From: Alphaproteobacteria bacterium endosymbiont of Tiliacea citrago
GTDB taxonomy: Bacteria > Pseudomonadota > Alphaproteobacteria > CAJXXZ01 > DAHXLG01
NCBI RefSeq assembly: GCF_964031065.1
Contig: NZ_OZ034995.1
Coordinates: 150,417 to 182,416, forward strand
DNA: 32,000 bases
Reading direction: 5' to 3'
Numbering within the stretch: position 1 is the first letter of the stretch; each line of letters starts with the position of its first letter. The position numbers and the translations under genes are program-made. The notes under the pieces are model-generated. The model had not been told where the DNA came from and did no database searches. It saw only the letters and a program-made list of their open reading frames with translations. Positions 24,496 to 27,061 of this stretch are shown here, piece by piece.

Positions 24496-24561
24496 TGAAA
24501 TTCATCCTAAGATAAATGTTACAATAATCTTTAAAAATATACAACAGAAGTCAATAAAAAC

Positions 24562-24634
24562 TGCCGAAGAGATGAATCGAACATCCGACCTTTTGATTAC
24601 GAATCAACTGCTCTACCAACTGAGCTACTCCGAC
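24562..24634 (-). tRNA. tRNA-Thr (anticodon CGU), no encoded CCA
   Basis: I folded the minus-strand cloverleaf by hand: acceptor GTCGGAG/CTTCGGC, D arm GCTC-AGTTGGTA-GAGC, anticodon arm GTTGA-TTCGTAA-TCAAA, variable AGGTC, T arm GGATG-TTCGATT-CATCT, discriminator A. Confidence 0.85.
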
Positions 24635-24676
24635 TTATCTGTAAGTTATCATATGAAAATAAAATATAAAAGTTTT

Positions 24677-25201
24677 TTAAATAAAGTTTAAGTTTTTTGC
24701 TATATTGTAAAAATCTAAATAAGGATCATTAATTTTAAAAAAAGAAATTCCTAAATCTTGAGCCACTTTTTGATCAACAAAACTATCTCCAATTAATAAA
24801 ATTTCATCTTTTTTATGAAAGTTAAACTGATTCATTGCGTATTCAAACATACTTAAAGATGGTTTTGGGTCAAATTGTTCACAAGTTAAAATCAAATCAA
24901 AAGGATTAAAATCTTTTAACTCTCTCAAAATTGATTTCTCAGTTCCGTTACTAACAACAACTTGAATTGCACCAGATTTAAGAAAATCGTTAACAAGAAA
25001 CCAAGCATATGGAATTTTCACCCCTTTGTTTTTTTTGAGCTTAGTTTTTATAAAAAAAGCATCCTTAAAATTTAAATTATCAAAATCTAAATCAGAAGAC
25101 ACCTCACCTTTTTGTATTAAATTTTTTAAGTAAACATTATATAAAAGACTATCAGAAAACAAAGTTTCCATCCAATCCCAAAAAACAAACTTAAAATTCA
25201 T
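24677..25201 (-). CDS. HAD-superfamily (subfamily IA-like) hydrolase homolog with a degenerate motif I
   Basis: Motif I reads FWDWMETL where the family has FDxDGTL. Motif II is VVVSNGT, the motif III Lys lies in DPKPS, and motif IV is LLIGDSFVDQKVAQDLGI. The start overlaps the upstream regulator's stop as ATGA. Confidence 0.7.
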   Translation of the reverse strand: MNFKFVFWDWMETLFSDSLLYNVYLKNLIQKGEVSSDLDFDNLNFKDAFFIKTKLKKNKGVKIPYAWFLVNDFLKSGAIQVVVSNGTEKSILRELKDFNPFDLILTCEQFDPKPSLSMFEYAMNQFNFHKKDEILLIGDSFVDQKVAQDLGISFFKINDPYLDFYNIAKNLNFI

Positions 25202-25914
25202 TGAAACTCAACAGAAACCAACTTAAACATTTTATTAATAAATTTTGATGAAATTTCTTGTTTATAATGATTAGAATACATTGAAAGAACAGTGAAATCA
25301 TCATTACTATCGGTTAATTCTCCAATAAACATATATCCATTATTATCAACAATCATAAGAGTATCACCGTTTTGATAAGAAGCAAATGAATCAAAATATA
25401 AAATATCACCCATTTTGTATCTAGGAGTATTATTGTTATTACAAGCATAAATAGCGAATCCAAAATCTGATGAAGAAAGTTTTGGTGGTCTAAAAACATA
25501 GTCCATAGCAGAAGTTAATATTATGACAGAATGAGGATTGTCTGTTACATCAAGCCCCTCGCTAATTACCCTATAAAGAGGCAAATTTTTTTTAAAACCA
25601 TTTTCACTTGCAAAAGTTTCAACAATATCTTCTGCAGAACCACCTTGAAAAAAAGCATCTTCCTTGCAATTTAAAGCTAGCGCTAATTTACTGATGATTT
25701 CTGTGTTCAATCTTCGTGCCCCAGCCTCTAATCTAGAAATATAAGAAGGAGATAAACCAGATAATTTACTTAAATCATATAAAGTATATTCCTTTTTTTT
25801 GCGCAAGGCCCTTAAAACTTTAGCATTTCTTTGAACAACAGAATTTACATCTTTTTTACCCTCAACACAAAAATCAATAACCTCGTCACTTAAAGCACTA
25901 TTTGTTAAATTCAT
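25198..25914 (-). CDS. cI/LexA-like regulator: XRE-family HTH plus a C-terminal S24-peptidase-like domain
   Basis: The HTH reads YTLYDLSKLSGLSPSYISRLEAGARRLNTEIISKLALALN. The C-terminal FAIYACNNNNTPRYKMGDILYFD..NGDTLMIVDNNGYMFIGEL follows the S24 layout (GDSMEP..GD.v.vd..nGd.v.v....KrL). I prefer the Met at 25914 as the start because AAGGGGG lies 8 nt upstream of it. An upstream ATG at 25935 is the alternative. Confidence 0.75.
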   Translation of the reverse strand: MNLTNSALSDEVIDFCVEGKKDVNSVVQRNAKVLRALRKKKEYTLYDLSKLSGLSPSYISRLEAGARRLNTEIISKLALALNCKEDAFFQGGSAEDIVETFASENGFKKNLPLYRVISEGLDVTDNPHSVIILTSAMDYVFRPPKLSSSDFGFAIYACNNNNTPRYKMGDILYFDSFASYQNGDTLMIVDNNGYMFIGELTDSNDDFTVLSMYSNHYKQEISSKFINKMFKLVSVEFQ

Positions 25915-25941
25915 ACCATTTTCCCCCTTAGGCATAAAAGC

Positions 25942-25970
25942 ATTCTATCAAAACAGATAATTATTATCAA
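25942..25970 (-). promoter_or_regulatory. candidate promoter (TTGATA-N17-TAGAAT) overlapping a perfect GATAAT-T-ATTATC palindrome
   Basis: On the minus strand, -35 TTGATA lies at 25970..25965 and -10 TAGAAT at 25947..25942, with a 17-nt spacer. The inverted repeat at 25956..25968 spans the -35 and spacer. All of this sits directly upstream of the regulator gene. Confidence 0.3.
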
Positions 25971-26024
25971 TATAACAAAAAAACCTTTTGAACAATCTTT
26001 TTTTGCCGAAATTTTCAACATTAT

Positions 26025-26798
26025 TTATAGTTCTTGTTCTAAGCCAAAAAAAATTTTTTTATCTAAATTTAAATTACTACTCATAATCATTTCTCTATAT
26101 CTACGATATTGTATTCCCTTCCAATAAGAAGCAAATATCTTTGCTTTTGTGTTTATATATGGAGCCCCACAATTACAATTTCTACAAATACGAAATAAAA
26201 CATCTTCCAAAAACGCATCTTTTTTAGTTTCAATAAAATTTTTCAAACTTAATAACATACCTCCTTTAATAAAGGTATGCCTATTGTAATATAAACTTTG
26301 TAAAGAAATTTGTATATTTAAAGGTAGTTTTTCAAAAAAAGGCATAAAATGAATAATTTCGCCTCTAAATTGTTTCAAAATGAATGATAAAATTTTTTTA
26401 CTATCTTCTTCAGTTATTATTTTTTGTTTTTCTTCAATTTGTTTTAAAAGATTTTGTTTTAAATTTTTAATATCAACATTAATTTGACTCAAAACAGTAA
26501 TTCCAAAATCAGTAAATTGTAAGTTGTTTTTGTTCGTTAATGCAAAGCCTGCTCCAATTGTTACTCTTCCTTCTGGACAAACATAAGGATATAAAGTACA
26601 AGATTCGCTCATTAAAATAAAATTTATCAAAGTTTCTTCATAACTATCATTAGTTAAAGAATCACGAAGTTGTCTTACTTTTTTTAATAAATACATTTGA
26701 TAAGGCCATGTTTTTTTGTCTTTTTCATCAAAAGAATTTTTATTTAAAATATTATCATATGATGCAAAATAAATTGGAGTACACAATTTTAAATTCAT
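26025..26798 (-). CDS. T4-lysozyme-like (GH24 family) protein with a roughly 60-aa N-terminal extension
   Basis: E65-x8-C74-x5-T80 in MSESCTLYPYVCPEGRVTIGAGF aligns residue for residue with T4 lysozyme E11..D20..T26 ([22 protein letters not shown]). Downstream, ITEEDSKKIL...LPLNIQISLQSLYYN...F..G and GIQYRRYRE parallel the P22/lambda-type lysozyme layout. Confidence 0.7.
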   Translation of the reverse strand: MNLKLCTPIYFASYDNILNKNSFDEKDKKTWPYQMYLLKKVRQLRDSLTNDSYEETLINFILMSESCTLYPYVCPEGRVTIGAGFALTNKNNLQFTDFGITVLSQINVDIKNLKQNLLKQIEEKQKIITEEDSKKILSFILKQFRGEIIHFMPFFEKLPLNIQISLQSLYYNRHTFIKGGMLLSLKNFIETKKDAFLEDVLFRICRNCNCGAPYINTKAKIFASYWKGIQYRRYREMIMSSNLNLDKKIFFGLEQEL

Positions 26799-26848
26799 AT
26801 ATAACAGTATATAAAAAACACCCTAAAACATTCCAAGATTATTTTTAT

Positions 26849-27061
26849 TTAAACAAAAAAACTAAAAAATTTAGTCAAACAAAAACCAAAAACAAAGTCT
26901 AAGATAAAGAAAAAAAAGCAAAAAAAAAGCAACATTACTACCACACCAACCACATATATTGTTGTTTGATTTATGTCTGGATATTGTAACTGAAAAAATT
27001 CATTCTTTATATTTGTAAAAAAAAACAAAACATCTTTGAAAAATTTTGTAATAAAACCCAT
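26849..27061 (-). CDS. secE: preprotein translocase subunit SecE (short single-TM form)
   Basis: KFFKDV....NIKNEFFQLQYPDINQTTIYVVGVVVMLLFFCFFFFILD matches short SecE. For comparison, Bacillus has KFFKDVGKEMKKVSWPKGKELTRYTITVI...LLD. Confidence 0.7.
   Translation of the reverse strand: MGFITKFFKDVLFFFTNIKNEFFQLQYPDINQTTIYVVGVVVMLLFFCFFFFILDFVFGFCLTKFFSFFV

Follow-up and report, generated by a model that had tools for sequence, protein, structure and literature searches.

A conserved cluster of GH24-like, cI-like and HAD-like genes follows secE in a clade of reduced-genome bacteria

Introduction

In the canonical bacterial gene order, secE is followed by nusG-rplKAJL-rpoBC, and the S10-spc-alpha string, headed by rpsJ, is preceded by the str operon with tuf. 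A stretch of 32,000 nucleotides from contig NZ_OZ034995.1 (assembly GCF_964031065.1, Alphaproteobacteria bacterium endosymbiont of Tiliacea citrago; positions 150,417 to 182,416 of the forward strand), hereafter called the window, was analysed around its secE-rpsJ interval. As in the canonical order, secE still heads a co-oriented string and rpsJ still heads S10-spc-alpha. It differs in that the gene for a GH24-like, T4-lysozyme-fold protein (abbreviated lys) occupies the nusG position after secE, followed by genes for a helix-turn-helix (HTH) regulator and a HAD protein, and in that tRNA-Thr(CGU), not tuf, precedes rpsJ.

The lys product shares with T4 lysozyme and the GH24 phage lysozymes a two-lobed fold, the series E-x8-[D]-x5-T followed by IG-G, and a C-terminal RR-x-E. 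It differs from T4 lysozyme in an N-terminal helical extension of ~50 residues, an insertion after the beta-hairpin, the replacement of Asp20 by Cys in the window subclade and, for the window protein, a score under the Pfam threshold. Unlike the GH24 phage lysozymes, it is encoded on the chromosome beside secE, is apparently vertically inherited, and has neither a holin nor any close phage relative that was found. Chromosomal proteins of this kind have been described. SpmX of Caulobacterales is a domesticated GH24 lysin with a changed residue 20 (bioRxiv 10.1101/418723); both it and the protein described here are alphaproteobacterial chromosomal GH24-lysin derivatives under purifying selection in which the Glu is kept and residue 20 substituted. 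SpmX carries D20L/R/G, a long linker and two C-terminal transmembrane helices and acts in polar localisation, whereas the protein here has D20C or the canonical Asp, no membrane segment and another gene context, and the shared GH24 fold is the closest relationship shown. In the alphaproteobacterium Brucella abortus the type IV secretion system is served by SagA, a T4-lysozyme-like autolysin, and the same study cites TtsA of Salmonella Typhi as another T4-lysozyme-like, secretion-serving autolysin (PMC8334348). Like the protein here, a probable muramidase in which the Asp is Cys in the window subclade, both are chromosomal lysozyme-like muramidases with a Glu/Asp/Thr triad from host-associated bacteria that rely on a large envelope-spanning secretion machine. 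SagA differs in that it is anchored by a C-terminal transmembrane segment and has its own inhibitor, PhiA; neither feature was seen here. It was not among the top 50 structural matches (Foldseek) of the lysozyme-like model.

Lambda cI and LexA consist of an N-terminal Cro/C1-type HTH, a linker and a beta-rich C-terminal domain with a P-x4-GD signature, features that recur in the regulator. The regulator differs from both in lacking the Ser nucleophile and the Lys base, so that RecA-stimulated autocleavage is not possible, and from lambda cI in having a HAD gene, in place of phage genes, as its partner. The HAD protein resembles HAD-IA proteins (phosphoglycolate phosphatase/PpaX/MupP-like) in its Rossmannoid core, the Asp of motif I, the Ser/Thr of motif II, the Lys of motif III, the GDxxxD of motif IV and a TIGR01549 score above cut-off. 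It differs from them in a WDWxxT motif I that has lost the Asp at Asp+2 in all lineages, and in a short, variable cap that is mostly deleted in one relative (L007).

Conservation of the cluster among relatives

Relatives of the window were reached from regulator homologues and lysozyme-family members, on contigs of several independent assemblies. The order recF / secE-lys-HTH-HAD-tRNA-Thr-rpsJ recurred in five other lineages (L001, L003, L007, L008 and L012), each with tRNA-Thr(CGU) at the same place, and formed part of a wider shared order, dcd-dnaB-tssG-tssF-cysS-recF and then secE-lys-HTH-HAD-tRNA-Thr(CGU)-rpsJ. In every related lineage examined secE stood immediately upstream of lys, and the divergent recF/secE arrangement was kept in these five lineages and in L004 and L014. 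All copies of the module genes (lys, regulator and HAD) were intact open reading frames (ORFs), and a hidden Markov model (HMM) sweep of all 63 loci agreed with these patterns. Across lineages, identities were 28–43% for the lysozyme-like protein, 32–61% for the regulator and 34–55% for the HAD protein, next to 43–73% for S10 and 41–56% for RecF. Between the window and L007 (a 604,017-bp contig, VYLZ01000004.1 / Ga0188007_100004), L008 and L012, S10 was 43–46%, RecF 42–46%, TssF 35–37% and the three module proteins 28–38% identical.

The cluster was also found in other surroundings. In L010 and L011, which represent a flagellated, less reduced lineage, the three module genes are adjacent with secE 7 nt upstream, nusB further upstream and trkA-like, ntrC-like and leuS genes downstream; neither a tRNA nor rpsJ lies beside the module in L010. 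In L014, recF / secE-lys is followed by a ribonucleotide reductase gene, and in L004 recF / secE-lys is followed by a tandem second lys copy; in neither is a regulator-HAD pair adjacent. Because the core cluster occurs with other flanks, the module goes with secE and predates the junction with rpsJ. Read most simply, secE-lys-HTH-HAD was already present in the ancestor of the clade, and in the branch bearing a type VI secretion system (T6SS) its place before tRNA-Thr-rpsJ has been stable. By sequence comparison the secE-GH24-regulator-HAD cluster is an old, vertically inherited one and a core feature of the clade.

The secE gene of L010 (9811–9993, plus strand; 60 residues; Pfam SecE 35 bits) is unannotated, as is that of L011, and the L010 module would for this reason look unlinked from secE. 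In L008, a less reduced relative, extra ORFs lie between HAD and tRNA-Thr: an insert at 12697–14754 carries ORFs of 123, 299 and 220 residues without a Pfam match and a 68-residue ORF on the opposite strand. The two tandem lysozyme-like paralogues that follow secE in L004 (3877–5800 and 5800–7246; also in L005) are followed by ~1 kb without recognisable genes and then by a truncated L4-like ORF, with no S10 or L3; this locus is degenerate or a low-coverage assembly artefact. The second L004 paralogue (P0021) has a hydrophobic, signal-like N-terminal segment and carries Q, N and V in place of the three catalytic residues.

A first-pass annotation, made from the window sequence alone, had given the order secE, GH24-like gene, cI-like regulator, HAD-like gene, tRNA-Thr and rpsJ with a gap of about 2.3 kb. 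This was confirmed: 2,353 nt separate the secE stop from the rpsJ start, and the interval is made up of three ORFs and tRNA-Thr(CGU) (Table 1). Its domain calls held as well, with HAD and HTH clear above threshold and GH24 weak by profile in the window protein and supported by fold, and so did its statement that all three proteins are atypical in their catalytic residues (C74 for D20 in the lysozyme, no Ser/Lys in the regulator, no second Asp in the HAD protein). SecE was identified by Pfam (30.5 bits; cut-off 22.7) and TIGR00964 (29.2 bits; cut-off 27.55). No Pfam match to NusG or KOW was obtained in any ORF between secE and rpsJ, and tblastn with E. coli NusG, EF-Tu and L11 gave no match to nusG, tuf or rplK in the window or in 63 related loci. 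Reannotation thus places no nusG here, and the separation of secE from nusG, and of rpsJ from tuf and the str operon, is as had been proposed. Two candidate explanations of the junction were rejected: the 257-residue ORF as a disguised NusG, as it has no NGN or KOW signal and a lysozyme fold, and tuf-tuf recombination, which would leave tuf, not secE, beside rpsJ. No tuf was found by tblastn near the secE/rpsJ junction in any lineage examined.

The window is very AT-rich (28.7% GC), contains the atp operon, recF, cysS and the T6SS gene tssF in addition to the genes treated here, and bears the hallmarks of a reduced genome; one of its proteins is recorded in the database on a contig 523,818 bp long. 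The clade consists of AT-rich, reduced-genome bacteria that are probably Holosporaceae-like protist endosymbionts with a chromosomal T6SS; this placement is inferred from chromosomal tssF/tssG, ~28–30% GC and genome contigs of 0.52–0.60 Mb. The diplonemid Holosporaceae endosymbionts Cytomitobacter and Nesciobacter have genomes of 616–626 kb with ~30% GC and an ancestral T6SS without TssD and TssJ, and keep peptidoglycan synthesis (bioRxiv 10.1101/719211). The secE-GH24-regulator-HAD cluster is mentioned neither in the Holosporales review nor in any paper retrieved by full-text literature search; it appears to be undescribed as far as searched, and is built from known superfamilies with family-specific changes in their catalytic sites.

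The lysozyme-like protein

An exhaustive HMMER search assembled a lysozyme-like family of 19 representatives at 50% clustering (alignment A5); in a word-indexed protein search the protein retrieved only itself, even as a 19-sequence profile. Two orthologues matched Pfam Phage_lysozyme (PF00959) above its cut-off of 22.3 bits (L007 at 23.9 bits; L010 at 28 bits, full-length), and those of L001, L008 and L004 scored 18–20 bits, under the cut-off. Similarity of the window protein to PHROG endolysins was only marginal. An AlphaFold2 model built on the 19-sequence family alignment reached a predicted local distance difference test (pLDDT) score of 88.2 and a predicted template modelling score of 0.88 (modelling from the single sequence, with a pLDDT of 38, was uninformative) and has the two-lobed T4-lysozyme fold. 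All top Foldseek matches in PDB and BFVD were T4 or phage lysozymes, at probability 1.0 and template modelling scores of 0.6–0.7 on the length of T4 lysozyme; the pesticin muramidase domain and the lysozyme domain of T4 gp5 were also matched.

By HMM profile alignment, E11, D20 and T26 of T4 lysozyme correspond to E65, C74 and T80 of the window protein. The catalytic Glu is present throughout the family, P0021 being the sole exception. The Asp20 position is Cys in the window protein and its three nearest relatives and the canonical Asp in most other members, and T, H, S or N is found at the Thr26 position. Of the substitutions at this Asp in the lysozymes of T4 and P22, only D20C and D20A are reported to keep hydrolytic activity, and both are found in phage sequences (bioRxiv 10.1101/418723); the Cys74 change is therefore real yet does not imply inactivation. 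Because the catalytic Glu and the Thr are retained, most relatives have the canonical Asp20 and Cys is reported to preserve activity, the lys product is probably still a muramidase.

Members of the window subclade share the N-terminal motif M-x-L-x-x-C-(I/T/L)-P-I-(F/Y)-(F/Y). Most family members outside this subclade carry a C-terminal extension of 60–90 residues that the window protein does not have (P0010–P0012, P0015, P0016, P0018–P0020, P0022 and P0023 in A5). The extension ends in a conserved, amphipathic-looking LP(D/S/N)I(D/E)Y(I/L)xxxLK.

The regulator and the HAD protein

The N-terminal domain of the regulator matched HTH_3 (51 bits, E=1.4e-13), and its PDB profile matches were Cro/C1-type HTH proteins. 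The start codon is probably that of Met8 (25914); the database gene call is 238 residues long. For the C-terminal domain, the Peptidase_S24 match of the window protein (18.5 bits, E=1.7e-3) was under the cut-off of 23.3 bits. PHROG 4 (transcriptional repressor) aligned to residues 37–208, spanning both domains, and in an hhalign comparison with LexA only the GD segment aligned. The architecture, with its predicted beta-rich C-terminal domain, is cI-like, and this domain is a candidate S24-like one.

The register of the Ser/Lys positions was set by the conserved P-x4-GD motif, which reads N-x-P-(R/K)-(Y/F)-x-x-G-D without the Ser (alignments A7, A9 and A11); G205 stands at the position expected for Lys. 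In none of more than 20 regulator homologues was a Ser/Lys dyad found: the Ser site holds N, L, V, E or some residue other than Ser, and G or S stands at the Lys site. With no Ser nucleophile and no Lys base, self-cleavage of the regulator is excluded.

Members of the wider regulator family are chromosomal, and their usual partner is an unrelated ORF in divergent orientation. Homologues of 270–350 residues with both domains, NP(R/K)Y..GD and no Ser were collected from ~25 loci (L021–L046; metagenome contigs from JGI and NCBI, up to 812 kb long). At 15 of the 17 such loci examined, the homologue is divergent to an ORF family of 190–280 residues without a Pfam match, the N-terminus of which is faintly GcrA-like by eye. 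GTDB genome scans retrieved no relative, whether the regulator was entered as a single sequence or as an alignment, and a defence-system library gave generic HTH matches only.

The HAD protein matched HAD_2 (38 bits; cut-off 23.8) and TIGR01549 (42.4 bits; cut-off 23.3); no equivalog model was reached. In seven lineages (alignment A10) motif I is WDWxxT, W8, D9, W10, T13, N85, K113, G138, D139 and D143 are invariant, and position 11 (Asp+2) is M, V, L or S and never Asp (D9-W-M11 in the window). Motifs II (S84 or T), III (K113) and IV (G138-D139...D143) are intact. In HAD phosphatases the Asp+2 of motif I is the general acid/base. Since this residue is missing, the HAD protein is not an ordinary phosphatase.

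Predicted transcription units

The gap between secE and lys is 7–105 nt across lineages, and no terminator was predicted between the two genes. As the gaps are short and no terminator is predicted, secE and lys are probably co-transcribed, with lys in the usual nusG slot.

Promoter candidates were scored as sigma-70-like consensus matches only. The top site of the consensus scan (10/12) was TTGATA-17-TAGAAT with an upstream TG, followed by a Shine-Dalgarno sequence, AAGGGGGA, before the regulator gene; its hexamers and the Shine-Dalgarno sequence align in L001, and inspection by eye showed TTGACA-type sites ahead of the regulator gene in L007 and L010. The regulator and HAD genes overlap by 4 nt (ATGA) in the window and by 17 nt in L010. 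A GATAAT-a-ATTATC palindrome in the promoter candidate was considered as an operator and rejected, being conserved in neither L001 nor L003, and no shared inverted repeat was seen by eye upstream of the regulator across lineages.

The recF/secE spacer (window 27062–27113; L001 7113–7164) shares a conserved ATAGTATCATTGATTTTT...ATATAGA. Read as TTGATT-17-TAATAT, this stretch would make a weak sigma-70-like promoter for secE; it is not in the promoter scan list.

Discussion

The best overall explanation, held at a probability of roughly 0.55, is that of an old cluster in which a domesticated muramidase travels with secE and is accompanied by a self-promoted regulator-HAD pair. By analogy with SagA, TtsA and SpmX, the lysozyme-like protein would be a domesticated muramidase of the GH24 type; it would be expressed together with secE and remodel the peptidoglycan of its own cell. 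The genes for the regulator and the HAD protein may make up a separate, translationally coupled unit of two genes, driven by a sigma-70-like promoter of its own, in which the non-cleavable regulator would act as a stable, possibly ligand-responsive DNA-binding dimer and the HAD protein as an unusual hydrolase or a binding partner. An ancient phage origin followed by domestication is a plausible part of this explanation. The cluster is kept intact by endosymbionts with tiny genomes and is thus probably needed.

Several observations weigh against this explanation. The window protein scored only 14.5 bits (E=0.047) against Phage_lysozyme, the Foldseek E-values of the lysozyme matches were only ~3e-3, and by hydropathy no family member except P0021 has a signal peptide or transmembrane segment; with no export signal or anchor, a periplasmic muramidase needs some other route. 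Peptidase_S24 scores stayed under the cut-off in every regulator scored (18.5–20.2 bits in the window, L010 and L027; 13.8 bits in P0002), and PDB profile searches with the C-terminal domain gave no significant match. No lysozyme, HAD or secE gene was found near the regulator homologue in the ~25 loci L021–L046, the regulator being widespread alone. The parts are separable, as L004 and L014 keep lys with no regulator-HAD pair beside it. The operon structure proposed here is derived from gene spacing and consensus matches.

That the GH24 domain has lost or attenuated its catalysis, and serves as a peptidoglycan-binding scaffold (as SpmX) or in a cytoplasmic role unrelated to the wall, is unlikely. 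The changed Asp20 position of the window subclade, the variable Thr26 position, the lack of an export signal and the loss of all three catalytic residues in P0021 would suit it, and SpmX illustrates that localisation can be the main role of a domesticated GH24 domain in which residue 20 is changed (bioRxiv 10.1101/418723). However, the catalytic Glu is found in every family member but P0021, most lineages have the canonical Asp20, Cys belongs to the two substitutions reported to retain activity, and SpmX itself keeps attenuated activity. The protein could instead be an antibacterial, T6SS-delivered muramidase effector used against co-resident or prey bacteria and controlled by the neighbouring regulator: it lacks both a signal peptide and a membrane segment, as T6SS cargo would be expected to, tssF and tssG lie 3–5 kb off in the conserved synteny block, the pesticin and T4 gp5 domains are among its structural matches, and published genomes of this kind have a modified T6SS and hosts shared with other symbionts. 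This is distinctly unlikely, since lys is not beside vgrG, PAAR or hcp and is separated from tssFG by cysS and recF, no periplasmic immunity candidate is adjacent (the neighbours are a cytoplasmic regulator and a HAD protein), the tight partner of lys in every lineage is secE and not a T6SS gene, and L010 and L014 carry lys with no T6SS gene within the fetched ±10 kb. Doubtful to a similar, slightly greater degree is a bolder extension of the domestication hypothesis, in which a phage-derived lysin, a non-cleavable cI-type regulator and a catalytically odd HAD protein would have been domesticated together and fused to a secE unit, replacing nusG, as an indispensable envelope-control module throughout a family of protist endosymbionts, perhaps gating peptidoglycan for a TssJ-less T6SS or regulated self-lysis, with the muramidase reaching the wall without a known export signal. 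A controlled-lysis cassette, with the lysin held off by a non-cleavable repressor and released in a subpopulation (for gene transfer agent (GTA) release or for passing contents to the host), is quite improbable. A cytoplasmic endolysin-like protein beside a repressor suits a lysis switch, GTA capsid and portal genes have been reported in related diplonemid endosymbionts (PMC9254644), and the L007 orthologue weakly matches the model of the Bartonella GTA endolysin BgtA (E=3e-4); yet this match covers a 35-residue catalytic motif only, at 20 bits against a cut-off of 315, the locus has no candidate holin or spanin, the lysin gene follows secE and not the regulator promoter, and in L004 and L014 it has no adjacent repressor.

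The first-pass annotation had read the junction as a rearrangement scar with a captured module, the most accessory-looking region of the window, and had offered a prophage relic or a functional unit of unknown role as its content. A GH24 lysin beside a cI-like HTH repressor is a typical prophage pairing, the best viral-library matches of the module proteins were PHROG endolysin and repressor families, and a tRNA gene adjoins the module, all of which would suit a recent scar with a decaying prophage relic (repressor, lysin and cargo HAD), perhaps integrated at tRNA-Thr. This origin is nevertheless very improbable. The junction and its genes are intact in five lineages in which S10 identity falls to 43–46%, and the core cluster occurs also with other flanks; compared among relatives, as the annotation had suggested, the genes are not scattered. 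The composition check it had proposed gave third-codon-position GC contents (GC3) of 0.13–0.18 for the module genes and 0.14–0.27 for the genes of the window, with lys (0.128) marginally below; GC3 being native, the region is not compositionally accessory. Between L008 and L017, the only close pair, the ratio of nonsynonymous to synonymous substitution rates was 0.14 for lys, 0 for the regulator (five synonymous changes) and 0.08 for the HAD gene, all from small counts. ORF and Pfam calls gave no integrase or other phage gene in the secE-rpsJ interval, and no flanking direct or attachment-site-like repeats were found among inverted repeats or by sequence inspection. The canonical lysozyme-family member P0013 had no tblastn match in 50,697 INPHARED records, and IMG/VR gave HTH-only matches to the regulator. 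Prophages integrated at a tRNA normally lie 3' of it. This module lies 5' of the tRNA, and in L010 the tRNA is not beside it. Of the two contents offered, a functional unit of unknown role is the better one, the cluster being conserved and intact.

Genomes of ~0.5–0.6 Mb have shed nearly all dispensable genes, which makes the intact module a good candidate for an unrecognised essential function; cell-wall turnover, secretion-machine assembly and controlled lysis are candidates. The cluster is another likely case of a phage lysin turned host gene, it takes the place, throughout a clade, of the near-universal linkage of secE with nusG, and it offers a simple synteny marker for this clade in metagenomes. 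No major concept is changed, as every part belongs to a known superfamily.

Other features of the window

Coordinates of the cluster and its neighbours are given in Table 1. The ribosomal protein string S10-spc-alpha runs on the minus strand from rpsJ to rplQ at ~11090 (ORF list and NCBIfam).

Table 1. Features of the secE-rpsJ interval and its flanks (window coordinates).
Feature	Position	Strand	Description and basis
recF	27114..28085	+	Divergent neighbour of secE, context only; TIGR00611 E=1.6e-47, slightly under its own cut-off
secE	26849..27061	-	70 aa; first gene of the conserved cluster; divergent from recF; Pfam SecE and TIGR00964
GH24-like (T4-lysozyme-fold) gene (lys)	26025..26798	-	257 aa; fold model, Foldseek, HMM alignment to T4 lysozyme
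Promoter candidate of regulator gene	25942..25970	-	Consensus scan
XRE-family HTH regulator gene	25198..25935	-	245-aa ORF; HTH_3
HAD-IA-type gene	24677..25201	-	174 aa; HAD_2, TIGR01549
tRNA-Thr(CGU)	24562..24634	-	Between module and rpsJ; ARAGORN and Rfam
rpsJ	24142..24495	-	First gene of S10-spc-alpha string; Pfam Ribosomal_S10 E=3e-23

Some ribosomal proteins of the string depart from the usual length. L4 (rplD, 22660–23472) is 270 residues long, with an N-terminal extension of ~80 residues that is also present in L001 and L004, L23 (rplW, 22248–22667) is 139 residues long with an N-terminal extension of ~40 residues, and S10 has a short C-terminal tail. A 5S rRNA gene (1739–1855, minus strand; Rfam 62.5 bits) stands alone beside the atp operon, its end touching a TTG-start ORF called atpC (1391–1744); no 23S rRNA was found upstream of it within the window, and the 5S gene may be unlinked from 23S. 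The longest ORF of ndk (7499–8074, plus strand) has a TTG start that lies within or upstream of tRNA-Thr(GGU) (7557–7631, plus strand); Ndk homology begins at residue 52, which puts the real ndk start at ~7652.

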